NCBI GenBank assembly: GCA_964510165.1 | Contig: CAZEBC010000098.1 | Location: forward strand, 1-14,323 | DNA length: 14,323 bases | Reading direction: 5' to 3' | Source: an uncultured bacterium | GTDB taxonomy: Bacteria > Abyssobacteria > SURF-5 | Part shown: in pieces, positions 77-14,144 of the stretch | Position numbering within the stretch: position 1 is the first letter of the stretch | Layout of the letters: each line of letters starts with the position of its first letter | Notes under the pieces: generated by a model | Told to the model about the DNA's origin: nothing | Seen by the model: only the letters and a program-made list of their open reading frames with translations | Databases searched by the model: none | Made by a program: the position numbers and the translations under genes

Positions 77-652
77 ATGTACGTAACTGATGATATCGTT
101 AAGGAACTCGAGCGGAAATTTGGCGTGCCGGAGGTGATCCAGCTCCGGCAGGACATGTTCGCTGCGGAGTTCGAGATTCTGGTGAAGAGCATGAAGTACA
201 ACCGCGCCCACGATGTCACCATGTTCATATTCAAGGGACCCTACCTGATCGCCATCCGCAAACATATGCATCCGCATGGCGTCTACCGGGCGCCCAGCGG
301 CGGCCTCATGCCCGGCGAGGATTTCGAGAAGGGCACGCTCCGCGAGGCATATGAAGAGACCGGCGCCCTCATCGAGCTTCGGAAGTACATCCTCCGGATT
401 CATGTGACGTTCATTCATGACAACCAGGAGGCGCCGTGGACCTCGCACGTGTTCACGGCGAGGTATCTCTCGGGCGAACTCCGCCCGATAGACACCAAAG
501 AAATCACCGAGGTGAAGGAAGTCTCGCTCGACGAATTGCAAGGGCCTATCAGGGAACGGCTGCTGGCGTCGGGATCGGGCGGGCTTGCGTACCGGGCCGC
601 CTTGACCGACAAGGTGGTCGAAATCCTCAATCATCACCCCGCCGACCACTAG
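77..652 (+). CDS. Nudix hydrolase
   Basis: Complete Nudix box G-x5-E-x7-REUxEExG (GGLMPGEDFEKGTLREAYEETG); RBS upstream; 191 aa. Confidence 0.9.
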   Translation: MYVTDDIVKELERKFGVPEVIQLRQDMFAAEFEILVKSMKYNRAHDVTMFIFKGPYLIAIRKHMHPHGVYRAPSGGLMPGEDFEKGTLREAYEETGALIELRKYILRIHVTFIHDNQEAPWTSHVFTARYLSGELRPIDTKEITEVKEVSLDELQGPIRERLLASGSGGLAYRAALTDKVVEILNHHPADH

Positions 653-730: not shown

Positions 731-1204
731 ATGGGTTTGACCGATGTTATCCCGAAGAACGTGCTCACCACCCGATTGGATGACTTGATCAAATGGTCCC
801 GCAAACATTCGCTCTGGCCGATGCCGTTCGGAACCGCCTGCTGCGCCATCGAATTGATGGCTGTGCTCGCCTCACGATATGACCTGGCCCGCTTCGGCGC
901 CGAGGCGATCCGCTTCTCTCCCCGACAATCCGACCTCATGATTGTTGCCGGGAGGGTCTGCAACAAGATGATGCCTGTCCTTCAAAGAATCTATCTCCAG
1001 ATGCCCGAGCCGAAATGGGTCATCGCGATGGGCGCATGCGCGAGCAGCGGCGGAGTGTTTGACACGTACAGCGTGATCCAGGGGGTTGACAACTTCATGC
1101 CCGTTGACGTGTATATTCCCGGCTGTCCTCCCAGGCCCGAGGCCATCATTGAGGCGGTGCTCCTCATCCAGAACCGTATCGCGGAAGAGAGACAAGAGAT
1201 ATAG
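731..1204 (+). CDS. nuoB: NADH-quinone oxidoreductase subunit B (N2 cluster)
   Basis: [32 protein letters not shown] and [13 protein letters not shown] motifs. Confidence 0.98.
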
Positions 1205-1221
1205 GCGGAGGCGCGCAAACC

Positions 1222-1806
1222 GTGGAAGTTTATCTCACCCCCAAGTCGAAAGAGGAAATTGCCGGGTTTCTGATGAAGACCGTCGGCAGGCTCGAGTCGC
1301 GGTTTCCAGAGCATATCGTCGAGCGGAAGGAATTCCGGGGGGAGACCACTATTGTTGTGAAGCCCGCTGGTATCTTTGAGATAGCCAAATTCCTTCGAGA
1401 TGATTCCGAGCTGCTGTACCGGCACCTGGCGGACATCACGTGCGTGGACCATCTTCACCTGGACATGTCGCTCGGCAGATTCGCCGTCGTGTACCATTTC
1501 TATTCATTCAAGCACGGCGGCAGGCTGCGCCTTAAGGCGTTCCTGCCCGAGCACGACCCCCAAATAGACTCGCTTGCGCCCCTGTGGCACACTGCCGACT
1601 GGCTGGAGCGCGAGGTGTATGACATGTTCGGCGTGGTGTTCCGCAATCATCCAGACCTGCGCCGGATACTCATGCCGGAGGACTCGATACACTTTCCGCT
1701 CCGCAAGGATTATCCGCTGACCGGGAGGGGAGAGCGCGAATCGTTCCCATATGTCACGCGAGACGGCCGCATCATCGAGAAGTCGCGTTCCCCCAGAGCG
1801 AGGTAA
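1222..1806 (+). CDS. nuoC: NADH-quinone oxidoreductase subunit C
   Basis: ADWLEREVYDMFGVVFRNHPDLRRILMP...FPLRKDYPL signature; GTG start after GGAGG (1207-1211); exact start uncertain. Confidence 0.96.
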   Translation: MEVYLTPKSKEEIAGFLMKTVGRLESRFPEHIVERKEFRGETTIVVKPAGIFEIAKFLRDDSELLYRHLADITCVDHLHLDMSLGRFAVVYHFYSFKHGGRLRLKAFLPEHDPQIDSLAPLWHTADWLEREVYDMFGVVFRNHPDLRRILMPEDSIHFPLRKDYPLTGRGERESFPYVTRDGRIIEKSRSPRAR

Positions 1807-1808
1807 GC

Positions 1809-3023
1809 ATGGCAGAGAAGAGCACCATTGACCTTCCCGTGGCGGCGTTTCGCGCGATGACGCTCAACTTCGGCCCGCAGCATCCGGCCACCCACGGCAC
1901 GCTCCGAATCAAGATGGAGCTCGACGGCGAGACCATCGCGAAGGCGACGCCTTATATCGGGTTCCTGCACAGCGGCTTCGAAAAGCTCGGCGAGCATCTG
2001 GACTTCAATCAGTACGTGACCGTGGTTGACCGGATGAATTACATGTCGGCCCTCTGTAACGACATTGCGTGGCATCTGGCAGTCGAAAAGCTGTTCGGGA
2101 TAGAAGTGCCCAAGCGCTGCCAATACATCCGAGTGGTCTGCGCGGAATTGAGCCGGATCGCCGACCATCTCATATTCCTTGGGACGCACGCGCTCGACCT
2201 TGGCGCCTTCACCGCTTTCCTCTGGTGTTTCCGCGAGCGCGAAAAGTTCTATGACCTCGTCGAGATGCTCACGGGCGGCAGGATGACCACCAGTTACACG
2301 CGCGCGGGCGGGCTGTGGGCGGACCTGCCGAAAGGATTCGAGGAGAAAACGCTCGAGTTCTGCAAGCAATTCCCGGAAAAGCTTGATGAGGTTGACGAAC
2401 TGCTCACGAAGAACCGCATCTGGGTTGACAGGACGAAGGGAGTCGCCGTCATATCCGCCGAGGACGCCATAAATTACGGGCTTACCGGCCCATGCCTGCG
2501 AGGCTCGGGTGTCGTCTGGGACATCCGCAAGGCCGAGCCCTACAGTTCCTACGAGGACTTCGATTTCGAAATTCCATATGGCGAGAACGGCGATGTATAC
2601 GACCGCTACCTGATCCGGCTTGAGGAAATGAGACAGAGCGTGAGGATCATTGAGCAGGCCATCGAGAGAATGCCTTCCGGACCAGTGGATGTGGACCAAT
2701 CATGCAAGATTCGGCTGCCGCCGAAGCAGAAGGTATACACCGAGATGGAATCGCTCATCTATCATTTCGAGTTCATCATGCCCGGAAAAGGCCCGAAGCT
2801 GCCCGAGGGCGAAGTCTATGTCCCGACCGAATCGCCCAACGGAGAACTGGGTTACTACATCGTCGGTGACGGAAAGAGCAAGTGTGCGTACCGCGCGCGC
2901 ACTCGGCCGCCTTCGTTTGTCAACTACCAGGCCTTCTCGAAGATGGTCGAGGGTCGGCTTGTGGCCGATGCGGTCGCCGCGCTCGGCAGCCTGAACATCA
3001 TTGCCGCAGAACTTGACAGATGA
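1809..3023 (+). CDS. nuoD: NADH-quinone oxidoreductase subunit D
   Basis: NFGPQHPATHG, GFLHSGFEK, DRMNY, ESPNGELG, C-terminal ELDR; no NiFe-binding CxxC pairs. Confidence 0.98.
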   Translation: MAEKSTIDLPVAAFRAMTLNFGPQHPATHGTLRIKMELDGETIAKATPYIGFLHSGFEKLGEHLDFNQYVTVVDRMNYMSALCNDIAWHLAVEKLFGIEVPKRCQYIRVVCAELSRIADHLIFLGTHALDLGAFTAFLWCFREREKFYDLVEMLTGGRMTTSYTRAGGLWADLPKGFEEKTLEFCKQFPEKLDEVDELLTKNRIWVDRTKGVAVISAEDAINYGLTGPCLRGSGVVWDIRKAEPYSSYEDFDFEIPYGENGDVYDRYLIRLEEMRQSVRIIEQAIERMPSGPVDVDQSCKIRLPPKQKVYTEMESLIYHFEFIMPGKGPKLPEGEVYVPTESPNGELGYYIVGDGKSKCAYRARTRPPSFVNYQAFSKMVEGRLVADAVAALGSLNIIAAELDR

Positions 3024-3035
3024 CGGAGTGACTCC

Positions 3036-3545
3036 ATGGGCTGGCCGTCAAAGATCGAAGAGCACAAGCCGGAAAAGCAGGAACTGCCCGCCGACTTGAG
3101 ACAGCAGCTCGACGAACTCCTCACGCACTATCCGAACAAACGCGCCGCCCTGATTCCCGTGCTTCAGAGGTGTCAGCAGCGCTTCGGGTACCTATCCGAG
3201 TCGAGCATGCTGGCGGTCGCCGAGTACCTGGAGCTGCCGCCGAGCCATGTGGCGGACACCGTCTCGTTTTACTCGATGCTGCACGCGACACCGGTCGGAA
3301 AGTATCACATCGAGTTGTGCCAGACCATATCGTGCGCGCTTCTCGGCGCTGATTCTCTCGCGGACTATCTTACCCGGAAGCTCGGCATAGGCTTCGGTGA
3401 GGTGACCGCCGACGGACGCTTCTCGCTTCAAAAAGTGGAGTGTATTGGCGCATGCGAGCAAGCGCCCGCTTTGTTGCTGAACAATGAACTGTACGGAAAC
3501 CTGAACAAGGAACGGATTGACGAGATACTTGACGGGCTGCCCTGA
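3036..3545 (+). CDS. nuoE: NADH-quinone oxidoreductase subunit E (2Fe-2S N1a)
   Basis: VSFYSM, CQTISC and ECIGACEQAP motifs. Confidence 0.96.
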   Translation: MGWPSKIEEHKPEKQELPADLRQQLDELLTHYPNKRAALIPVLQRCQQRFGYLSESSMLAVAEYLELPPSHVADTVSFYSMLHATPVGKYHIELCQTISCALLGADSLADYLTRKLGIGFGEVTADGRFSLQKVECIGACEQAPALLLNNELYGNLNKERIDEILDGLP

Positions 3546-3561
3546 CCCCAGAGGATTTGTC

Positions 3562-3927
3562 ATGCTTGGAGACTACATTCCGATCCTGCTGATGTTCGCG
3601 TTCATATTCGGCTTTGCCGCGTTCAGCCTGATCATCACGCACCTCATCGGGGTGCGGCGAGGCGGTTCGGTGAAGCTCGAGCCGTATGAATCGGGCATGC
3701 CGCCCCTCGGCGACCCGCATCATGGCGCCACCATCAAGTACTATCTCTTCGCCATGTTCTTCATCATTTTCGACGTAGAGGTGATATTCCTTTATCCCTG
3801 GGCCGCCATTTTCAAGCGGTTCATTGAGGAACGTCCGTTCGTATTAATCGAGATGTTCATCTTCCTGCTTGTCCTTATCGTCGGACTCATATACATATGG
3901 CGCAAAGGGGCGCTTGAATGGGAGTGA
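3562..3927 (+). CDS. nuoA: NADH-quinone oxidoreductase subunit A
   Basis: KLEPYESG, YYLFAMFFIIFDVEVIFLYPWA, YIWRKGALEWE; start moved to ATG 3562 after GAGGA (121 aa). Confidence 0.97.
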   Translation: MLGDYIPILLMFAFIFGFAAFSLIITHLIGVRRGGSVKLEPYESGMPPLGDPHHGATIKYYLFAMFFIIFDVEVIFLYPWAAIFKRFIEERPFVLIEMFIFLLVLIVGLIYIWRKGALEWE

Positions 3928-3953
3928 GACAGCGCGGCAGAACCGCCCAAAGC

Positions 3954-3997
3954 CCCCTCACCCTGCCCTCTCCCAGCGGGAGAGGGTTGGGGTGAGG
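3954..3997. repeat. REP-like palindromic repeat, copy 1
   Basis: CCCCTCACCCTGCCCTCTCCC-AGC-GGGAGAGGGTTGGGGTGAGG, an imperfect inverted repeat; 42/44 identical to 9509-9552. Confidence 0.9.
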
Positions 3998-4030
3998 AAA
4001 AATATCTCGGCAAGATTCAAGAAACCGACA

Positions 4031-5326
4031 ATGAGTGCTACAGTGGAACCCGTTCTTCTGAGAAACCGCCACGTCGAGAACTCGACCGATATTGACGTGT
4101 ACATCGCGCGAGGCGGCTACGAGGCCTTGAAGAAGGCGCTCACCGACATGTCGCCCGAACAGGTGCACAAACAGGTGACCGATGCCGTCCTGCGCGGGCG
4201 CGGGGGCGCGGGCTTCCCGGCCGGCTTAAAGTGGAAGTTTCTCGATAAGGACCCCAAGAAGACGCGCTACCTGTGCTGCAACGCCGACGAGAGCGAACCC
4301 GGCACATTCAAGGACCGCGTGTTGATGGAAACCGACCCGCATCAACTTCTCGAGGGAATGCTCATCGCCTGCTACGCGATTGGCGCGCATGTGGCGTACA
4401 TCTTCCTTCGGGGTGAATACGCCAATTCCTATAGAATCCTCGACAAAGCGATTTCGCAGGCGCGCACGCGCGGGTATCTTGGGAAGAGTATCCTCGGCGC
4501 CGGCTTCGACGCGGAAATATACCTGCATGAGGGCGCCGGCGCGTACATTTGCGGCGAGGAACTGGCCATGCTCGAGTCGCTCGGCGGCGCGCGAGGCTGG
4601 CCCAGGCTCAAACCGCCCTACGCCGCAACGAGAGGCGCGTTTTATCAGCCCACTGTCGTCAATAACGTCGAGACCCTTGCATGCGTGCCCCACATCGTCT
4701 TGCGGGGCGCCGAATGGTTCAAGAGCATCGGCAACGAGAACAATTATGGGCCGAAGCTGTATTGCCTCAGCGGCCACGTCAACAGGCCGGGGCTGTATGA
4801 ACTCCCGATGGGCACAACGCTCAAGACACTGATATACGATTTCGGCGGCGGCATTCCCAAAGGGCGTAAACTGAAGGCCGTCTTGCCGGGCGGTTCCTCA
4901 TCAGCGGTGCTGACCGCCGACGAGGTGGACGTCCCCATGGATTTCGACACCATGTCCAAAGCAGGCAGCATGCTTGGCTCGGCTGGCGTCATTGTGATGG
5001 ACGATGCGACCTGCATGGTGAACGCCTGCTGGAATGTCGCCCGGTTCTACGCTCACGAATCCTGCGGTCAATGCACCCCGTGCCGCGAGGGAACCAACTG
5101 GGCGGCGCGCATCCTGGGCCGCATCGAGCATGGCCTCGGCAAACTCGACGACATCGAGATGATCCTGAAGATATGCGACAACATGCTCGGCCAGACCATA
5201 TGCGCGCTCGCCGACGGCGCGGTGTTCCCGATACAGAGCATCACGAAGAAGTTCCGGAGCGAATTCGAGCGGCACATCCGCGACGGCGCATGCCCATTCA
5301 ACTCGGGAAAGAGCAAGACGACATGA
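4031..5326 (+). CDS. nuoF: NADH-quinone oxidoreductase subunit F (FMN/NADH, N3)
   Basis: LRGRGGAGFPAGLKW, NADESEPGTFKDR, GAGAYICGEE, HESCGQCTPCREG, TICALAD; start moved to ATG 4031 (431 aa). Confidence 0.97.
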   Translation: MSATVEPVLLRNRHVENSTDIDVYIARGGYEALKKALTDMSPEQVHKQVTDAVLRGRGGAGFPAGLKWKFLDKDPKKTRYLCCNADESEPGTFKDRVLMETDPHQLLEGMLIACYAIGAHVAYIFLRGEYANSYRILDKAISQARTRGYLGKSILGAGFDAEIYLHEGAGAYICGEELAMLESLGGARGWPRLKPPYAATRGAFYQPTVVNNVETLACVPHIVLRGAEWFKSIGNENNYGPKLYCLSGHVNRPGLYELPMGTTLKTLIYDFGGGIPKGRKLKAVLPGGSSSAVLTADEVDVPMDFDTMSKAGSMLGSAGVIVMDDATCMVNACWNVARFYAHESCGQCTPCREGTNWAARILGRIEHGLGKLDDIEMILKICDNMLGQTICALADGAVFPIQSITKKFRSEFERHIRDGACPFNSGKSKTT

Positions 5327-5339
5327 CGCGGGGTTCATC

Positions 5340-6923
5340 ATGCCGGTGATTCGCATAAACAGACGCGAGATCGAGGTGGACGAGGGAACCACCATCATGC
5401 AGGCCGCCGACAAGCTCGGAATCTATATTCCCAGATACTGCTATCATGATGGCCTGTCAATCGCCGGCTGCTGTCGCATCTGCGGGGTCGAAGTCGAGGA
5501 GTCGCCGAAACTGATGATGGCGTGCGCCACCCCCGTGAAGGACGGCATGGTTGTCCGCACCGACACTGAACGCGTCAGGATGGGCCAGAAGACGGTGCAG
5601 GAATTCCTTCTCATCAACCATCCGCTCGACTGCCCGGTATGCGACCAGGCCGGCGAATGCTGGCTCCAGGACTACGCCTATGATTACGGCTTTGCCGAGA
5701 GCCGGTTCAGGGAACAGAAAATCAAACAGCGCAAGAAGGACGTCGGCAAGAACCTGCTCCTGTATGCCGACCGCTGCATCATGTGCACGCGCTGCGTCAG
5801 ATTCGCGCGCGAGGTTTCGGGATACAATCAGATCGGGGTATTCGGTCGAGGCTCGCAGAGCGAGATTGACATATTCCCCGGCCTGAGAATTGATGACAAC
5901 CTGTCGGGCAACATCGCCGACATCTGCCCGGTCGGCGCGTTTCTGATAAAAGACTTTTTGTTCAAGAGGCGCGTGTGGGAACTCCAGACCACGATGAGCG
6001 TGTGCCCCGCCTGCACGGTGGGCTGTAATGTGTTCCTTCACCATGCGGAAGGCAGAATCCAGCGAGTTCTTCCTCGCTACAATCCGCGCGTGAACGGCCA
6101 CTGGATGTGCGACATAGGACGGCTCGATTATAAGTTTGTCGCGAGCGGGGACAGGCTCAAGAAGCCGATATTCAAGCGTGAAGAGTTGTTCGAACAGCCC
6201 GCCTGGAACGAGGCCCTCTCGCGCGCAGCGGCGCACATAAGGGAGATCATCACACGGCGCGGCCCCGATTCCTTCGCGTTCGTCGTCTCTTCCGATGCGA
6301 CCAATGAAGAGGCCTTCGTCGTCGCGCGCCTGGCCGACGCGCTTGGCTGCGCCCAAAACCTGCGGCTCTTGCCCGGCGAGCGGGGGGAGGAGGAGCATTT
6401 CCTCGGCGGCTTCGTCATTGAGAGCGATCGCTCGCCGAATGCGCGGGGTGTCCTCGCCATACTCAAGCATTTCATGCCGGAAGACGCCAAGGACAAAATG
6501 ACGGACCCGAACTCGATCTCGGCGAAGGCAGGCTTTTTCATATTGTGCGGACCGCATTCGAACAAGGAGGCTGTCGAGACGCTTGCGCGGTCGGCGAAGA
6601 AAGCCGAGTTCTCGCTCGTCCAGGCCATTTTGCCGTCGGCCTTGACTGAGGCGGCGACAATGGTTCTGCCCGGAGCGGCATACGCCGAGAAGGAGGGCAC
6701 ATACACAAATTATCGCGGCATCATCCAGCGCCTGTACCCCGCGTTCGAGCCACCGGGCGAGGCAGGCCATGACTTGAACATCATGTTGGAGCTTGCCGAA
6801 GCGATGAAAGAAGGCCTCGATTTCAAGACGATTAACGAAGTGTCGAGAGACCTGTCCCGCCGAATCGAGGGTTACGTCGCGATCGAGCATATTGACCCTA
6901 TGGGCTGGGCCGGCATTATGTAG
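5340..6923 (+). CDS. nuoG: NADH-quinone oxidoreductase subunit G, short form
   Basis: N1b (CYH...GCCRIC...MAC), N5 (HPLDCPVCDQAGEC), N4 (CIMCTRC...ICPVGA), N7-type CPACTVGC...MCDIGR; C-terminal LPGAAYAEKEGTYTN. Confidence 0.93.
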   Translation: MPVIRINRREIEVDEGTTIMQAADKLGIYIPRYCYHDGLSIAGCCRICGVEVEESPKLMMACATPVKDGMVVRTDTERVRMGQKTVQEFLLINHPLDCPVCDQAGECWLQDYAYDYGFAESRFREQKIKQRKKDVGKNLLLYADRCIMCTRCVRFAREVSGYNQIGVFGRGSQSEIDIFPGLRIDDNLSGNIADICPVGAFLIKDFLFKRRVWELQTTMSVCPACTVGCNVFLHHAEGRIQRVLPRYNPRVNGHWMCDIGRLDYKFVASGDRLKKPIFKREELFEQPAWNEALSRAAAHIREIITRRGPDSFAFVVSSDATNEEAFVVARLADALGCAQNLRLLPGERGEEEHFLGGFVIESDRSPNARGVLAILKHFMPEDAKDKMTDPNSISAKAGFFILCGPHSNKEAVETLARSAKKAEFSLVQAILPSALTEAATMVLPGAAYAEKEGTYTNYRGIIQRLYPAFEPPGEAGHDLNIMLELAEAMKEGLDFKTINEVSRDLSRRIEGYVAIEHIDPMGWAGIM

Positions 6924-6942
6924 GGGCGCACGGCGCGCGCCC
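6920..6942 (+). repeat. Degenerate GTAG-type REP-like hairpin overlapping the nuoG stop
   Basis: GTAG followed by GGGCGC-acggcgc-GCGCCC. Confidence 0.4.
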
Positions 6943-6965
6943 GCCGATATGAAAGGCTGAAGCCG

Positions 6966-8009
6966 TTGTCCGATCTTCTGGTAACAACCATTATTGCGCT
7001 GATAAAGATCGTCATCGTTTTCGGTGCGATTCAGGTGGCGGTCATGTATCTTGTGCTCGCAGAGCGAAGAGTCAGCGCGTTCATCCAGGACAGGCTGGGC
7101 CCCAACCGCGTCGGCTGGGAGGGCCTGCTCCAGCCCATTGCGGACGGCCTCAAGTTCCTGTTCAAGGAGGATGTCATCCCTGAACGCGCCGACAAGGTAG
7201 TCTTCATCATGGCGCCCGCGATGATCGTGATTCCCGCGCTCATGACGTTTGCGGTCATCCCATTCGGCGATTCCGTCACGGTGGCCGGTCGGCAGGTCCG
7301 GCTGCAGATTGCCAGCCTGAACATAGGCCTCCTGTATGTGTTCGCATTGGCGTCCATCAGTGTGTACGGGATCATTTACGGCGCGTGGGCGTCCCGGAAC
7401 AAATATTCGATGATGGGCGGCCTGCGCTCATGCGCGCAGATGATAAGCTACGAGATTCCGCTCGGCCTGTCCGTGATGGGCGTCCTCATGCTGACCGGTA
7501 CGCTTGAGCTGGAGAAAGTAGTGGAGGCGCAGACCTCGTATCTTTGGGGCGTGATTCCCCGCTGGAACATCCTGTTTCAGCCGCTCGCGTTTCTGCTGTT
7601 CCTCGTTTCGGCAGTTGCCGAGAACAACCGCCTTCCGTTCGATTTGCCTGAGGCCGAGCAGGAACTCGTCGCCGGCTACCACACCGAATACAGCAGTATC
7701 AAGTTTGCGATGTTCTTCATGGCCGAGTATGCCGCAATGGTCACAAACTGCTCCTTGATTGTGGTATTGTTTCTCGGAGGATGGCATGTGCCTGGCCTCG
7801 GAGCGCTCGGCCTGCCATCCCTTATCACGGAATTGATCCAGGTGGCGGCGTTCGTTCTGAAGGTCTCAGTGTTCCTGTTTTTCTACCTGTGGATACGCTG
7901 GACGTTTCCACGCTTCAGGTATGACCAATTGATGGGGATGTGCTGGAAAGCGCTTCTCCCTCTGGCCCTGCTCAACATCTTCATAACCGGCATCGTTATG
8001 GCGCTTTGA
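6966..8009 (+). CDS. nuoH: NADH-quinone oxidoreductase subunit H
   Basis: ERRVSAFIQDRLGPNRVG, QPIADGLKFLFKE, NRLPFDLPEAEQELVAGYHTEYS, RWTFPRFRYDQL; TTG start. Confidence 0.98.
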   Translation: MSDLLVTTIIALIKIVIVFGAIQVAVMYLVLAERRVSAFIQDRLGPNRVGWEGLLQPIADGLKFLFKEDVIPERADKVVFIMAPAMIVIPALMTFAVIPFGDSVTVAGRQVRLQIASLNIGLLYVFALASISVYGIIYGAWASRNKYSMMGGLRSCAQMISYEIPLGLSVMGVLMLTGTLELEKVVEAQTSYLWGVIPRWNILFQPLAFLLFLVSAVAENNRLPFDLPEAEQELVAGYHTEYSSIKFAMFFMAEYAAMVTNCSLIVVLFLGGWHVPGLGALGLPSLITELIQVAAFVLKVSVFLFFYLWIRWTFPRFRYDQLMGMCWKALLPLALLNIFITGIVMAL

Positions 8010-8024
8010 AAACGGGAGTATCCG

Positions 8025-8552
8025 ATGGAAGAAGAATCAATCAAGAAAGTGCAGGCTGAGGAGTATGCCCGACAGGCATACGAGATGAACTTCATAGATC
8101 GGCTCTACCTGCCCGCGCTGTTGAAGGGGCTTGCCGAAACATTCCGGCACCTGCTCGACAAGAAGTTCACGGTTGAATATCCCGAGCAGAAGCGGCAGGT
8201 CTTCCCGCGCTATCGCGGGCTGCACAGGCTCAACAAAGACGAGCTTGGCCGGGTCAAATGCGTGGCGTGCTTCATGTGTTCCACGATTTGTCCGGCGCGC
8301 TGCATCTACATCCAGGGCGCCGAGGCCCCGTGGCCCGACCGCGAAAAGTATCCCGTCCGGTTCGACATAGACGAACTCCGCTGCATCTATTGCGGCATGT
8401 GCGAGGAGGCGTGCCCCGTCGAGGCGATCGAGCTGACCGAAATATATGATATGGTCGGTTATTCGCGTGAGGGGTTCATCTACAACAAGGAAATGCTTCT
8501 GGACATATACGACAAGACCAAAGACAAGGGCGGAATGAAGAAATGGCTCTAG
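8025..8552 (+). CDS. nuoI: NADH-quinone oxidoreductase subunit I (N6a/N6b)
   Basis: TVEYPE, RYRGLH and two ferredoxin motifs, CVACFMCSTICP and CIYCGMCEEACP. Confidence 0.97.
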   Translation: MEEESIKKVQAEEYARQAYEMNFIDRLYLPALLKGLAETFRHLLDKKFTVEYPEQKRQVFPRYRGLHRLNKDELGRVKCVACFMCSTICPARCIYIQGAEAPWPDREKYPVRFDIDELRCIYCGMCEEACPVEAIELTEIYDMVGYSREGFIYNKEMLLDIYDKTKDKGGMKKWL

Positions 8553-9190
8553 TGGTATACCTGCTGTTCGGCTCGCTGGCCGGTACGACTGCGTGGCGCG
8601 CCTGGAAATCTGACAGCCGCCTCATTCGGGCATTGTGGGGCTTTTGCGCCTCGCTCTCGTCGCTCATTGCGCTTTTGGCAGCGTGGCGCGGCATCGCCGA
8701 TTTCCCTGGACTGCTCTTCTATTTCTTTGCGCTGATCTGCGTCTTCGCCGCCCTAAGGGTGATCCTCCAGCCCAACCCGGTCCACTGCACCATCTGGTTG
8801 ATCACGGTATTCCTGTTCACGGCGACCCTGTTCATCCTGAAACAGGCCGAGTTCCTTGCGGCAGTGCAGGTGATCATCTACGCCGGCGGCATCATGGTGC
8901 TGTATGTGTTCATCATAATATTCGTTGAGCCTGGGACCATCGGCGAAGAACCCTCGCCCGCGTGGATGACTGCTGGCGCTTCTCTCGTCGGGCTTGCGAT
9001 TCTGACGGCGCTCATATGGGTGGCATCACGGCTCAAGGTGGAACCGGCCGCGGCGTTTCCCGGCTATCAGGTGAAGGAATTGGGCGAAACACTCTATTTC
9101 AACGCTGTAATCCCGTTCGAGGCGACGTCCTTGATCTTGCTCGTCGCGCTCATTGGGGCCGCCCTTATCGGAAAGGCGGAGAAGGACTGA
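8543..9190 (+). CDS. nuoJ: NADH-quinone oxidoreductase subunit J with N-terminal hydrophobic extension
   Basis: NPVHC, AEFLAAVQVIIYAGGIMVLYVF, PFEATSLILLVALIGA; ATG overlaps the end of nuoI by 10 bp. Confidence 0.93.
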   Translation: MALVVYLLFGSLAGTTAWRAWKSDSRLIRALWGFCASLSSLIALLAAWRGIADFPGLLFYFFALICVFAALRVILQPNPVHCTIWLITVFLFTATLFILKQAEFLAAVQVIIYAGGIMVLYVFIIIFVEPGTIGEEPSPAWMTAGASLVGLAILTALIWVASRLKVEPAAAFPGYQVKELGETLYFNAVIPFEATSLILLVALIGAALIGKAEKD

Positions 9191-9492
9191 TGACAACCCC
9201 ATCGAATTATATGATACTTGGTTCGATCCTCTTCGTCATTGGCTTCGTCGGGTTCAGCACCCGGCGCAACATAGTGGTCATGTTCATGTCGTCCGAACTG
9301 ATGCTGAACGCCGCCAATCTCAATTTCATCGGATATTCGTCGGCATGGGGAAACCCGACCGGCCAGATATTCGCCGTGTTCGTCATAGCCGTGGCGGCGG
9401 CCGAAGCGGCAATCGGATTGGCGATACTCATGCTGTTATTCAGAACCCGCGCCAGCGTAAGCGCAACCGACTGGAAGACGCTCAAGGGGTAA
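9190..9492 (+). CDS. nuoK: NADH-quinone oxidoreductase subunit K
   Basis: RRNIVVMFMSSELMLNAANLNF, GQIFAVFVIAVAAAEAAIGLA; TGATG overlap with nuoJ; 100 aa. Confidence 0.97.
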   Translation: MTTPSNYMILGSILFVIGFVGFSTRRNIVVMFMSSELMLNAANLNFIGYSSAWGNPTGQIFAVFVIAVAAAEAAIGLAILMLLFRTRASVSATDWKTLKG

Positions 9493-9508: not shown

Positions 9509-9552
9509 CCCCTCACCCTGCCCTCTCCCACTGGGAGAGGGTTGGGGTGAGG
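9509..9552. repeat. REP-like palindromic repeat, copy 2
   Basis: CCCCTCACCCTGCCCTCTCCC-ACT-GGGAGAGGGTTGGGGTGAGG; same orientation as copy 1, differing only at 2 loop bases. Confidence 0.9.
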
Positions 9553-9617
9553 GAAAAACAGGACAGAAATCCGCGATTTTCGGGATCAGTAATATAGAGA
9601 CAGGAGAACCAATACCG

Positions 9618-11099
9618 TTGAACACTGACCTGAACCTGGTGGTTCCCGAAATATTCCTCTCCGTGACAGCGATGGGTGTCCTGATCCTGGAGACATTCCT
9701 GGCGGGCCGCGCGAAGCGCGTTTTCGCGCATCTTACAATCGCCGCGCTTCTCGTGACAGGAGTGTTTCTCGCGCGCTGCAACCTGACCGAGACAACGTTC
9801 GCGTATTCGCGCATGTTCGTGCAGGACGGGATTGCGGTGGTGTTCAAGATGCTGTTCATGCTGGCCGGCATTTTCGTCGTGCTGACGGCATACGATTTTC
9901 TGCTGTCTCGCAATGTGTTTCGCGGCGAATTCTTCGCGCTCTTGATGTTCTCCACGGTCGGCATGATGCTCGTGGCCTCCGCGTTCGATTTCCTGACCCT
10001 GTTCGTGGGGCTGGAGCTTGCGTCTCTCGCGACCTACATCCTCGTTGGTCTGACCAAGAAGGACCTCTGGTCCAATGAGGCCGCGATCAAGTACTTTCTG
10101 CTGAGCATATTCGCGTCGGCCATCCTCGTGTTCGGGATATCGGTAGTGTATGCCGCTGTGGGCACGACCAATTTCGGGGAGATCGCCGGAAAAATCGGAG
10201 AAGTGACGCGCAGGCAGCACACCACTGCGGTTGTGGCGCTCATCTTGCTGGTGGCCGGGTTCGGGTTCAAGATTACCGCTGTCCCCTTTCACATGTACGC
10301 TCCCGACGTGTATCAGGGCGCGCCCACGCCGGTCACCATCTTTCTCGCGATCGGGCCGAAGGCCGCCGCCTTCGCCGGCCTCGTCCGCGTCTTGGGATAC
10401 TTCGCGCACACGATGACCGACGACTGGCTGGCGCTCACGTGGGTGCTCGCGTTCATGACGATGACCGTGGGCAATGTGGCCGCCGTGTTGCAGACCAACG
10501 TGAAACGGATGCTGGCATACTCGAGCATCGCGCACGCGGGCTACGCGCTCATCGGGGTCGCCGCAATGGCAAGGGAGAATGGTGCGGGCGCGTTGCCGGG
10601 CAGCGTATCGAGCGTGATCTTCTACCTGTTCGCGTATACGCTCATGAACGTGGGCGCGTTCAGCCTGTTGATATACATGAAGCGCGGGAGCGATTATGGC
10701 GAGGAATTGTCCGATTTTTCGGGACTCTGGCGGCGCAGACCGGCGGCGGCGGTCGCGATGTTGGTGTGTCTCCTGTCGCTCACCGGCATTCCGCCGTCCA
10801 TCGGCTTCCTGGGCAAACTGTACATTTTTGGCGCCGCCATCAAGGCCGAACTCTATGGTCTCGCGGTCATCGGAGTATTGAACTCCGTCGTTTCGCTCTT
10901 CTATTATCTCCGCGTCGTCGTGCACATGTTCGTGTATTCTCAGCAGCGCGAGGTCACCGATGTGCGCTCGTTTTCGCTCGACCTCGCTCTCGCGGCGAGC
11001 GCCCTGGCGATCGTGTTGCTGGGAATCTTCCCGCATGTCATCCTGTCCGCAATCGAGCGGTCTGCCGCCAGCTTCCTGACGGGAGGGATCATCCAATGA
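9618..11099 (+). CDS. nuoN: NADH-quinone oxidoreductase subunit N
   Basis: VPEIFL, GEFFAL, FVGLELASL, EAAIKYF, FKITAVPFHMYAPDVYQGAP, KRMLAYSSIAHAGY, GFLGK; probable TTG start at 9618 after AGGAGA (9602-9607); 493 aa. Confidence 0.95.
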   Translation: MNTDLNLVVPEIFLSVTAMGVLILETFLAGRAKRVFAHLTIAALLVTGVFLARCNLTETTFAYSRMFVQDGIAVVFKMLFMLAGIFVVLTAYDFLLSRNVFRGEFFALLMFSTVGMMLVASAFDFLTLFVGLELASLATYILVGLTKKDLWSNEAAIKYFLLSIFASAILVFGISVVYAAVGTTNFGEIAGKIGEVTRRQHTTAVVALILLVAGFGFKITAVPFHMYAPDVYQGAPTPVTIFLAIGPKAAAFAGLVRVLGYFAHTMTDDWLALTWVLAFMTMTVGNVAAVLQTNVKRMLAYSSIAHAGYALIGVAAMARENGAGALPGSVSSVIFYLFAYTLMNVGAFSLLIYMKRGSDYGEELSDFSGLWRRRPAAAVAMLVCLLSLTGIPPSIGFLGKLYIFGAAIKAELYGLAVIGVLNSVVSLFYYLRVVVHMFVYSQQREVTDVRSFSLDLALAASALAIVLLGIFPHVILSAIERSAASFLTGGIIQ

Positions 11100-11833
11100 A
11101 ATGTTCACAATGCGGAACCGAAAACAAGGAAGGCCAGAAATACTGCGGTCACTGTGGAAACTCGCTCGGCGAAGTGAAGGCAAGCGACCTGTTCGAGGCC
11201 GCCTTCAAGAGCGAGGCGCGCGGCGACCTCAAGGAGGCGCTGACCATTTACGGCCAGTTGCTCGATATGAGGCCGAAAAGCCAGGAAATCCTTTTCAAGA
11301 TGGGGACGGTCGCATACGACCTCGGGCGCGTCACGGAGGCGATGGAGAAATTCAGCAAGGTCATTGAATACAACCCCAAGTTCGTCTACGCTCATTATCG
11401 GCTCGGGCTGTGTCAGTATCAGAGATGCATGATCGAGGAGGCCGTCGAGTCCTACAAGGCCGCGCTCGCCATCACGCCCGAATTCGTGCCGGCGCTCCTC
11501 CAGCTCGGCCTCGCTCAATATCACATCGGCCGGCTCGACAAGGCCAGGGAAGCCCTCCTGAAGGTGACTCAGATCGAGCCTGCCTGCACAATCGCACACT
11601 ATTATCTCGGGCTGGTCTATGAACGGATGCGCCGCATTGATGATGCTGTCGCGCAATTCACCCACGTCGCAAAGGAAAACCCCAGAGACCCGTCAACTCA
11701 TTACCACCTGGGAATCCTTTATAAGAGGAAATTCATGCGAGATGCCGCCATCGGCGAATTGATGCGCGCTCACCAACTCGACCCCGACGATGAGGCCACC
11801 ATCGAGGAACTGAGTTCGCTCCAGCAGAAATGA
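11096..11833 (+). CDS. Zinc-ribbon plus tetratricopeptide repeat protein
   Basis: Start moved to ATG 11096 (ATGA overlap with nuoN stop); MKCSQCG...YCGHCG then about six 34-aa TPR units (e.g. AHYRLGLCQY, AHYYLGLVY, THYHLGILY); 245 aa. Confidence 0.88.
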   Translation: MKCSQCGTENKEGQKYCGHCGNSLGEVKASDLFEAAFKSEARGDLKEALTIYGQLLDMRPKSQEILFKMGTVAYDLGRVTEAMEKFSKVIEYNPKFVYAHYRLGLCQYQRCMIEEAVESYKAALAITPEFVPALLQLGLAQYHIGRLDKAREALLKVTQIEPACTIAHYYLGLVYERMRRIDDAVAQFTHVAKENPRDPSTHYHLGILYKRKFMRDAAIGELMRAHQLDPDDEATIEELSSLQQK

Positions 11834-12886: not shown

Positions 12887-13029
12887 CTTCGCCGCCTTGC
12901 CCGCCCGGATTCCCGTCCCTTTGCCCCCACGTAATGGCGAACACCACCCCTTCTTGCCATAGTTATAAAAAGACCATAAAGAGAATGCGAAATCTCATTC
13001 CCTTTAACGAGACAAAGGGGGAAGACGAG

Positions 13030-13437
13030 ATGATCCCGAAAAAATATCTCTTCTTATCGCTATGCGCGGCGCTGATCCTCTTCCTGGCCACGCGCGGAGG
13101 CCAGAAGCCAAGCGTGGGCCACGTCGTGGCGCCGTACACAGAGAGAGAGTTGCTTGAATTCCAGCGGCAGATGATTGCAGATGTCAAGTCGCAACTGGAG
13201 GCAGACCGTCAGCAAGTGGCCGCGACGACGGAGCCATCCGCAAAGCAGAAGGCTAGCGTGGGCGACATCCTGGCGCCCTACACAAAGAGGGAGTTGCGTG
13301 AGTTCCAGCAGCAGATGGCCGAAGATGTCAAGTGGCAACTCGAGGCAGACCAGCGACGATTGGCCGCGATGGCAGAGTCATCCACACACGCAACCGAATC
13401 TGAACCGGGTGTGGCCGCGCAGAGAGAAGAACTTTAG
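13030..13437 (+). CDS. Hypothetical exported or membrane-anchored protein with internal tandem duplication
   Basis: ATG 13030 after AAGGGGG; MIPKKYLFLSLCAALILFLA signal/anchor; two in-frame 48-aa repeats. Confidence 0.7.
   Translation: MIPKKYLFLSLCAALILFLATRGGQKPSVGHVVAPYTERELLEFQRQMIADVKSQLEADRQQVAATTEPSAKQKASVGDILAPYTKRELREFQQQMAEDVKWQLEADQRRLAAMAESSTHATESEPGVAAQREEL
13102..13389 (+). repeat. Two diverged in-frame 144-bp tandem repeats
   Basis: Unit 1 13102-13245 (QKPSVGHVVAPYTERELLEFQRQM...), unit 2 13246-13389 (QKASVGDILAPYTKRELREFQQQM...). Confidence 0.9.
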
Positions 13438-13517: not shown

Positions 13518-14144
13518 CTACTTCAGCGGAGCGGTCATGATATAGTCGTTGTCTTTCTTCGTGCCGTGGCAGGCGATGCATGCCTCGACTTTACCTTCTG
13601 CCTCAACCGTGCCGTCCGGCAAATATTTCAGCCAGAACCAGTCCCCTGCGTCGGGGTTGTAGCCCTCCACCCTGTACATGATTGTGAGGGCCATCAGGTT
13701 CTTGTCCGGACCATAATTTTCCTTGACGATGAGCGAGCCGGCCGGAAGCTTTCCCTGTTTGCCCTCGATGGCCGCCAAGGCGGCGTCGTTCACGTAGGTG
13801 GTCAGCAAAACGCCGTGTGGCTCGGTTCCCTGATAGAGCGCTTCCTTTCCCGGCCACATCTTCCAGGTCTGCTGATAGTTGGCCTGCGTCAGAAACTCCT
13901 GCAATGCGGCGCCAGAAGCTTCGGGCGCTGCAGCCGCGGGAGCTTCCATCGGAGCCTGCTCCATGGGCGGTTGCTCAGCTCCCGTGGGCGCTGGCTCAGC
14001 CGGAGTTGGCTCAACCGGGGCTGTCGTCGGTTCGGCTGGCTGCGGTGGCGCGGGCTGCTCCTCCCGTTGCCCGCACGCGGGCAGAAAAACGATCCCGACA
14101 ATCAAGACCAGTACGAACATGCCCAGCAGTGGTGTCCTCTTCAT
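13518..14144 (-). CDS. Cytochrome P460-family lipoprotein
   Basis: Signal peptide with lipobox LPAC; Pro/Ala/Glu linker; TYVN...LPAGSLIVKEN...GDWFW...CIACH...DYIM, with a single near-C-terminal CxxCH (13566-13580); RBS GGAAGGAG. Confidence 0.88.
   Translation of the reverse strand: MKRTPLLGMFVLVLIVGIVFLPACGQREEQPAPPQPAEPTTAPVEPTPAEPAPTGAEQPPMEQAPMEAPAAAAPEASGAALQEFLTQANYQQTWKMWPGKEALYQGTEPHGVLLTTYVNDAALAAIEGKQGKLPAGSLIVKENYGPDKNLMALTIMYRVEGYNPDAGDWFWLKYLPDGTVEAEGKVEACIACHGTKKDNDYIMTAPLK

Follow-up and report, generated by a model that had tools for sequence, protein, structure and literature searches.

We analyzed a 14,323-bp stretch of DNA (hereafter, the window) that makes up an entire contig (CAZEBC010000098.1, GenBank assembly GCA_964510165.1) in the 97% complete genome of an uncultured bacterium of the lineage Abyssobacteria, SURF-5. 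The window encodes a respiratory complex I (nuo) operon without nuoL and nuoM, and its nuoJ gene begins with an N-terminal extension predicted to place two membrane helices, a hairpin, ahead of the five helices of a normal NuoJ. The extension is unique to one clade, in which this two-helix addition to NuoJ and a conserved complex I operon that lacks nuoL and nuoM are linked by common descent. The nuoJ gene, its parts and its junction with nuoI are as follows:

8025..8552, forward strand: nuoI, stop codon overlapping the nuoJ start
8528..8533, forward strand: Shine-Dalgarno-like GGGCGG box, 9 nt upstream of the nuoJ ATG and within the 3' end of nuoI
8543..9190, forward strand: nuoJ, N-terminally extended, 215 aa (open reading frame; Pfam PF00499 at 115.6 bits, residues 70-209; 27 full-length relatives)
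8543..8701, forward strand: clade-specific N-terminal extension, residues 1-53 (absent from 17/17 solved NuoJ/ND6 sequences; conserved in alignments; ratio of nonsynonymous to synonymous substitution rates, dN/dS, 0.15-0.61; extension-only profile search)
8546..8608, forward strand: predicted extension helix 1, residues 2-22 (AlphaFold2 secondary structure; conservation)
8609..8617, forward strand: inter-helix loop, residues 23-25 (sequence; predicted helix limits)
8618..8689, forward strand: predicted extension helix 2, residues 26-49 (helical periodicity of conservation)
8702..9187, forward strand: canonical five-helix NuoJ core, residues 54-215, including Y113 in the third transmembrane helix (TM3) (alignment to solved NuoJ; helix positions; Y113 invariant)

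The NuoJ extension and its translation

The Pfam model Oxidored_q3 (PF00499) scores well above its cut-off on the window NuoJ (115.6 against 33.2 bits) and matches residues 70-209 alone, the NCBIfam NuoJ models begin to match at residues 55-59, and the alignments to all 17 solved NuoJ/ND6 sequences found start at query residues 43-65 and chain residues 4-22. Taken together, these onsets leave ~54 residues (53-54) as extra. An earlier note, written from the letters of the window alone, had proposed about 56 additional residues with two helices and a nuoJ ATG overlapping the nuoI stop codon; the length agrees closely with our estimate, AlphaFold2 likewise gives two helices, and the overlap is 10 nt (ATG at 8543, TAG at 8550-8552). 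In the window and in loci L003-L006 the protein starts 77 residues upstream of the NPVH-type motif, as opposed to mostly 24-36 residues for the farthest in-frame start in canonical loci where the motif was located. Five canonical loci have longer open frames, and four of these also have a start at 24-25 (L072: 24-32). The window NuoJ thus departs from the usual form, in which the protein begins with TM1 and a start 24-36 residues before the motif, and retains the five-helix core, the TM3 tyrosine and the gene position between nuoI and nuoK. Compared with canonical NuoJ/Nqo10/ND6 (E. coli 3RKO/7P61, Paracoccus 8QBY, Thermus 4HEA), the core at residues 54-215 aligns over its full length and shares the NPVH motif, the TM3 tyrosine (Y113) and the gene neighborhood, whereas the 53-54 N-terminal residues and the two additional helices occur in none of the 17 solved sequences.

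AlphaFold2, run with the 27-row clade alignment (mean predicted local distance difference test score, pLDDT, 64.4), places helices at residues 2-22 and 26-49 and then the five canonical ones (54-75, 79-99, 104-128, 140-163, and 190-213), so that the extra segment is predicted to be helical, as the earlier note had it. Hydropathy agrees with helix 2, where the Kyte-Doolittle profile peaks at 1.8. Conservation along this helix has a strong helical period (the observed moment was reached by 0/2000 shuffles), with W32, position 39, A43, A46/A47 and then G50 on the conserved face and a variable opposite face; this one-sided pattern would be expected of a peripheral helix with protein on one side and lipid on the other. 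In helix 1, Y6, G10 and T16 are invariant, A13, R19 and A20 are conserved at ≥90%, and conservation is more even (221/2000 shuffles reach its moment). Basic residues (R19, K22, R26, R29) surround the loop, which, by the positive-inside rule, suggests that it is cytoplasmic; this would orient helix 2 from cytoplasm to periplasm, like TM16 of NuoL. Only residues 23-25 lie between the two helices in the AlphaFold2 prediction, and a long amphipathic lateral helix is not present there.

It is almost certain that the hairpin is real and translated. Among the best 120 of 578 relatives retrieved by word-indexed search, only 27 proteins (P0001-P0027; 215-219 aa) align with 99-100% of the query, and below them the score drops sharply to ordinary NuoJ covering ~74% of it. 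In the 27-row NuoJ alignment M1, Y6, G10, T16 and A43 are invariant, and L12, A13, R19, A20, W32, F39, A47, G50 and F54 are ≥90% conserved. The nuoJ ATG, the 10-nt overlap with nuoI and a purine-rich box (GGGAGG in L172) are kept in all seven loci with the extended gene. Pairwise dN/dS (Nei-Gojobori) over extension codons 2-57 was 0.15-0.61, below 1 in 21/21 pairs, and over core codons 58-130 it was 0.03-0.21 in the 15 pairs with computable dS, ratios that are rough since dS is largely saturated. The contigs of runs X1, X3 and X4 that span the extension region contain zero insertions or deletions, and at their 12 variable places the changes, with codons read by eye, are synonymous or mostly conservative (I28V, I51V, S37L, L38F, S40L, S25G in the loop, and G33H in a variable column). 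The extension is under purifying selection.

The earlier note was right that neither ATG nor GTG occurs in frame close to where NuoJ usually starts, but it had overlooked in-frame TTG codons at NuoJ residues 31 and 45 of the window. These are not conserved, and GTG occurs at residues 44-51 in L004 and L006. The internal TTG start that the note itself had named as a possible refutation is very improbable: four of the seven loci (L003, L005, L172, and L173) have no in-frame start codon at residues 32-57, where only the upstream ATG gives an intact TM1, and in the near-identical strain of run X1 codon 45 (place 8675) is CTG. A separate protein, P0028 (193 aa, on a 3.5-kb contig), is a clade member minus 26 residues, comprising the end of helix 2 and the start of TM1; such a deletion would leave an odd count of extra helices and is thus possibly an assembly error or a broken gene.

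An operon without nuoL and nuoM: content, distribution and origin

The remaining genes of the operon are:

731..8009, forward strand: nuoB, nuoC, nuoD, nuoE, nuoA (3562-3927), nuoF, nuoG and nuoH (Pfam; identical order in 7/7 loci)
9190..9492, forward strand: nuoK, 100 aa, E36 and E72 invariant
9618..11099, forward strand: nuoN, 493 aa, TTG start, AGGAGA at 9603-9608 (TIGR01770; alignment to solved NuoN/NdhB)
11096..11833, forward strand: zinc-ribbon and TPR protein, 245 aa, ATG overlapping the nuoN stop (ATGA) (Pfam)

All seven extended loci, L172 and L173 included, have the order nuoB-C-D-E-A-F-G-H-I-J-K-N, with nuoK followed by nuoN, and neither nuoL nor nuoM was matched up to ~8 kb downstream of any of them. 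The operon is therefore not a 14-subunit complex I with all of nuoA to nuoN, nuoL and nuoM included. According to Pfam, the NADH module (E, F, G), the quinone module (B, C, D, I), NuoH, A, J and K are all present. NuoN is the sole antiporter-like subunit of the operon (TIGR01770, 432 bits against a cut-off of 332.6), and in seven-row alignments its residues E133, K218, K248 and K400 are invariant, as are E36 and E72 of NuoK. The NuoN residues sit in GLEL, FKITAVPFH, GPKAAAF and GFLGK motifs aligned to solved NuoN, and we take them to correspond to the E. coli residues in TM5, TM7, TM8 and TM12. Y113 of NuoJ is invariant in the 27-row alignment; TMH3 of NuoJ is described as carrying an essential tyrosine (PMC7419157). 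As judged from these alignments, the catalytic residues of the truncated enzyme are all conserved, and the enzyme looks functional.

The gene for the zinc-ribbon (N-terminal) and TPR protein directly follows nuoN in 7/7 truncated operons, with a 4-nt overlap in six of them, and the protein is 70-75% identical over its full length in 6/6 related loci. A tblastn search of canonical loci (L007-L082 and the genome's own contig C127) returned for it one weak opposite-strand match only. It could be an accessory subunit or an assembly factor specific to the clade. Other peculiarities of the operon concern gene placement and length. The nuoA gene is not first and lies between nuoE and nuoF in 7/7 truncated operons (3562-3927 in the window); L003 has a gene for a 597-aa thiamine-pyrophosphate enzyme between nuoE and nuoA (3338-5131), and L172 has an equal-sized gap of ~1.9 kb there. 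NuoG (5340-6923, forward strand) is short, at 527 aa, with a partial molybdopterin-like domain; it matches the sister Poribacteria-type operons end to end and Nitrospirota in two separated pieces.

A 49-nt palindrome occurs in both the nuoA-nuoF gap (3954-4002) and the nuoK-nuoN gap (9509-9557). The latter was considered as a scar of the L/M deletion and rejected, as the element is a genome-wide repeat resembling repetitive extragenic palindromes (110 blastn matches of ≥35 nt, spread over 108 of the genome's contigs) and is missing from relatives, in which 0-41 nt separate nuoK from nuoN. At the palindrome, read depth exceeds that of the flanking DNA by a factor of hundreds, and contigs assembled from other runs break off there.

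To determine how widespread the extension is, we used a profile of the extension only (five rows, 58 positions) against 1.84 billion representative proteins. Two proteins were matched: the clade representative, at E 6.5e-25, and an 871-aa protein in 11 short stretches, which we read as a hydrophobic repeat and probably spurious. Since only the clade was matched, there is no stand-alone form and no other fusion among these representatives. Within the GTDB phylum of the window, the extension-profile search places it in 7/11 genomes, all of one family, of which the carriers are 7/10 genomes, the window's own counted; their source names differ (Abyssubacteria, Poribacteria, Lindowbacteria), but genome placement puts all in this family. 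In a scan of one genome per species, a tblastn map of the resulting 80 loci contained 4 with full-length extended NuoJ, 70 with canonical NuoJ followed by nuoK and then nuoL, and 6 at a contig edge. On metagenome contigs, among the matches listed (at least 80 loci, all with canonical NuoJ), 59 loci have nuoK and then nuoL and 21 end too early; none carries the extension, in a scan whose patterns were very general.

The earlier note had suggested checking whether extended NuoJ co-occurs with loss of nuoL and had named its presence in nuoL-containing operons as a refutation. The extended form is found in 7/7 loci without nuoL, all one clade, and in none of at least 129 canonical-NuoJ loci (70 genome, at least 59 metagenome) that have nuoK and then nuoL; nor does nuoK stand directly before nuoN without the extension in any of the 80 genome loci and at least 80 metagenome loci. 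The frames displayed upstream of canonical NuoJ, including all those with a tblastn match into the extension, are hydrophilic or closed. Matches to residues 12-19 in Magnetococcales, Nitrospira and Poribacteria were rejected as extensions on the same ground.

A tree of NuoD and NuoH (32 rows, 738 columns, quick IQ-TREE, root not inferred) was built from rows picked out of 62 loci with both proteins, comprising all clade members and a spread of others; support is by the Shimodaira-Hasegawa-like approximate likelihood ratio test (SH-aLRT). The seven truncated operons form one group (SH-aLRT 100), sister to nine Poribacteria-labeled canonical operons with L, M and N (support 93), and both are nested among canonical operons of other phyla, the genome's own canonical operon being a long, distant branch. 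Because the truncated clade is sister to 14-subunit operons, one secondary loss of nuoL and nuoM is the simplest reading of this unrooted tree. That branch would, again on the simplest reading, also have seen nuoA relocated, the hairpin added to NuoJ and a further gene acquired downstream of nuoN.

Every carrier also has a canonical complex I, and the truncated operon is thus always a second enzyme. In the window's genome, contig C37 encodes NuoJ (179 aa, with L, M and N, against 215 aa here), NuoK, NuoL (706 aa), NuoM (613 aa) and NuoN (524 aa), a second NuoA, NuoD and NuoH are on contig C127, and Mrp is on contig C33. Canonical-type NuoJ occurs in 11/11 genomes of the phylum. So does a NuoL match, over the family cut-off in 10 and, in the eleventh (77% complete), ending at a contig end.

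A possible stand-in for the last helix of NuoL

According to the earlier note, NuoL packs with its final helix against NuoJ, NuoK and NuoN, and published structural descriptions agree: TMH16 of ND5 adjoins ND2 and ND4L, and bacterial TMH4 of ND6 lies between TMH16-ND5, TMH1-ND4L and TMH6-ND2 (PMC8762328). The homology of NuoJ with the C-terminal part of MrpA, also claimed in the note, is likewise on record, as TMH17-21 of MrpA are described as having the NuoJ fold (PMC7419157), which makes the helix just ahead of them TM16. The lateral helix of NuoL is reported to be on the N side (PMC3274701), and TM16 would accordingly run from cytoplasm to periplasm. MrpA (TMH15, lateral helix, TMH16, then TMH17-21; PMC7419157) thus also has membrane helices ahead of a NuoJ fold in one polypeptide; in both proteins the helix directly ahead of the fold is connected as TM16 is, and its direction would be alike if the basic loop of the hairpin is cytoplasmic. 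The window NuoJ differs from MrpA in having no detectable similarity to it ahead of the fold, a short basic loop instead of the long lateral helix, and no upstream antiporter domain.

We propose that a two-helix membrane hairpin was fused once, in one bacterial family, ahead of a normal five-helix NuoJ. The family's second nuo operon would derive from the canonical 14-subunit type, having lost nuoL and nuoM, moved nuoA and gained the zinc-ribbon/TPR gene after nuoN. The role of the hairpin would be structural: its conserved small-residue face would pack on the NuoJ/NuoK/NuoN junction, helix 2 would be placed where TM16 of NuoL normally anchors, and the hairpin would stabilize NuoJ TM4, NuoK TM1 and NuoN in an enzyme with one antiporter-like subunit. 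A structural hairpin at the site left by NuoL is the best explanation of the observations as a whole, and we rate its chances as about even. We see the arguments for an adaptation linked to the loss of L and M as similarly balanced, and occupation of the exact TM16 slot as doubtful. Replacement of TM16 by the extra helices, the idea put forward in the earlier note, is partly supported and plausible in that it fits the connectivity, the orientation and the one-sided conservation; topology, position and stabilizing role of the hairpin are what we infer from these. Helix 2 is joined to NuoJ TM1 by ~4 residues and so cannot be far from it, a tether short enough that a role at the far, NuoM-facing side of NuoN would be excluded.

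Several observations weigh against this proposal. The extension gave a best E of 0.13 when compared with NuoL C-termini and MrpA (68 sequences) and a probability of 0.35% in hhalign. Within the clade, conservation of NuoJ TM4 averages 0.67, a low value for the helix that should be in need of support, and the extension evolves faster than the core (dN/dS 0.15-0.61 vs. 0.03-0.21). The monomer model (pLDDT 64) superposes poorly on solved NuoJ (TM-score 0.3, root-mean-square deviation 16 Å). Since the carriers all belong to one clade of one family, the co-occurrence is a single event and could be coincidence, and 7/7 carrier genomes also encode canonical NuoL and NuoM. A derivation of the extension from NuoL TM15/16 or MrpA was also considered and is unsupported by any significant sequence or profile similarity. 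Foldseek searches of the monomer model against the PDB matched NuoJ chains weakly (best E 4e-3, TM-score ~0.3), so the geometry of the monomer cannot place the hairpin. Modeling of a complex (NuoN, NuoK and NuoJ core 54-215, with extension 1-53 as partner) scored 0.00 with controls unrun and gave no contacts, which favors neither side.

The alternative that survives best, though we think it unlikely, is that the hairpin decorates NuoJ in this lineage for reasons that have nothing to do with losing L and M, and merely shares its ancestry with the truncated operon. It might dock the zinc-ribbon/TPR protein or another respiratory complex, or aid membrane insertion or assembly. With all carriers in a single clade, the association is inseparable from shared descent, other changes (nuoA moved, TPR gene added) fall on the same branch, and the extension has no similarity to NuoL TM15/16; moreover, E. 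coli NuoB, NuoI and NuoF are reported to have ordered C-terminal extensions without any loss of subunits (PMC8357420). However, among the best 120 of 578 relatives and at least 129 operons with nuoL no membrane extension was found at the NuoJ N-terminus, and the ~4-residue tether to TM1 would put the hairpin on the very face of the membrane arm that holds TM16 and NuoJ TM4, as that arm is described in PMC8762328.

A less probable alternative, which we consider distinctly unlikely, is that the core made from the truncated operon borrows NuoL and NuoM from the canonical operon, the hairpin serving another role, for example in selecting or excluding a distal module. Full NuoL and NuoM are encoded elsewhere in 7/7 carrier genomes and a NuoL match exists in 11/11 genomes of the phylum. 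Cyanobacteria are reported to use different versions of NuoL/NuoM by condition (PMC8235220), with a single NDH-1 core that accepts interchangeable NdhD/NdhF modules, and the hairpin would not necessarily obstruct such an exchange. Against this, NuoD and NuoH of C127 are ≤51% identical to any other tree row and form a long branch; with two operons only distantly related, the core would need to accommodate L and M of foreign origin. J, K and N are also encoded in the canonical operon itself, and an incoming TM16 would probably clash with the conserved hairpin at the N-terminus of NuoJ. We regard an enzyme truly free of L and M as likely. Finally, it is very improbable that the extension is not made at all, an internal TTG or GTG (in the window, at residue 31 or 45) being the true start codon and the frame ahead of it being open by chance: such codons exist in the window, L004 and L006, but the four loci without a start codon at residues 32-57, the CTG at codon 45 in run X1, the five residues invariant across 27 sequences, dN/dS below 1 in 21/21 pairs and the Shine-Dalgarno-like box and nuoI overlap kept in 7/7 loci all speak against it.

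The family could make a natural minimal complex I ending at NuoN, in which the NuoJ hairpin, perhaps with the TPR protein, whose translation is coupled to that of nuoN, replaces the clamp formed by the lateral helix and TM16 of NuoL and ~2 H+ rather than 4 are pumped per NADH; we advance this only tentatively. If true, ~2 H+ per NADH would be advantageous in energy-poor habitats where quinones have a low potential or the membrane potential is high. NuoN itself would have to release protons to the outside, and nature would thereby offer a direct test of the view that all pumped protons exit through NuoL/ND5 only. The coupling of quinone reduction to four pumped protons in complex I is disputed, and a naturally selected complex I ending at NuoN would be a system for studying proton stoichiometry, the NuoN exit path and the replacement of the NuoL clamp.

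Other departures from the canonical architecture offer points of comparison. The '2M' complex I with an extra NuoM, said to have been described by Chadwick et al. in 2018 in Nitrospirota and others, is also a natural change in the number of antiporter-like subunits, with one gained there and two lost here. The plant assembly intermediate CI* is reportedly a form of complex I without the ND4/ND5 part. A Yarrowia lipolytica subcomplex without the distal pump module is reported to keep half of the proton-pumping capacity (PMC3160329). Both of these, like the window enzyme, are without the NuoM/NuoL part, but one is a mutant product and the other an assembly intermediate, whereas here the loss is genome-encoded and conserved in seven species-level genomes, together with a new NuoJ hairpin and a TPR gene. 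In membrane-bound hydrogenase (MBH; solved chain 6CFW_H), a single antiporter-like subunit is described beside NuoJ- and NuoK-like subunits (PMC7419157); MBH has a hydrogenase module and Mrp-type extra subunits, whereas the window enzyme keeps full NADH and quinone modules.

Neither a natural complex I without NuoL/NuoM nor an extended NuoJ was found in the literature searched, outside of which lie most subscription journals and supplements. A term search of the 'Candidatus Abyssubacteria' description gave no mention of nuo genes (PMC6121073). Truncated enzymes have so far been a subcomplex of a yeast deletion strain (PMC3160329) or in-silico models, among them the truncated enzyme made in silico that a 2026 preprint simulates (bioRxiv 10.64898/2026.10.02.756245). 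A broad survey of bacterial complex I counted a genome as encoding the enzyme only if none of the 14 subunits was missing (PMC4453560); truncated operons would be hidden by this requirement and scored as non-complex I.

Neighboring genes and the canonical locus

Upstream of nuoB, a NUDIX hydrolase gene (77-652, forward strand) is present in 6/7 loci, L173 beginning at nuoB. Downstream of the TPR gene, 4/7 loci have a plant-type O-methyltransferase gene (PF00891; 11843-12886 in the window, forward strand). Further along, an open reading frame at 12934-13437 encodes 167 aa with a signal-anchor-like start and no Pfam match, and inside it, at 13102-13386 (forward strand), are two tandem 141-nt units that are 80% identical at a spacing of 144. 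On the reverse strand, 13518-14144 encodes a secreted protein with a cytochrome P460 domain and a Pro/Ala/Glu-rich linker.

The canonical complex I of the same genome is split over contigs C37 and C127. On C37 (locus L083, 14481-19035, minus strand), the region directly upstream of the canonical nuoJ encodes an 862-aa protein resembling NuoG and formate dehydrogenase, and a 653-aa protein that combines the C-terminal iron-sulfur part of NuoF with an NAD(P)-binding part like that of the glutamate synthase small subunit. No nuoH or nuoI lies between these two genes and nuoJ, and the two-gene arrangement looks like an unusual electron-input module.

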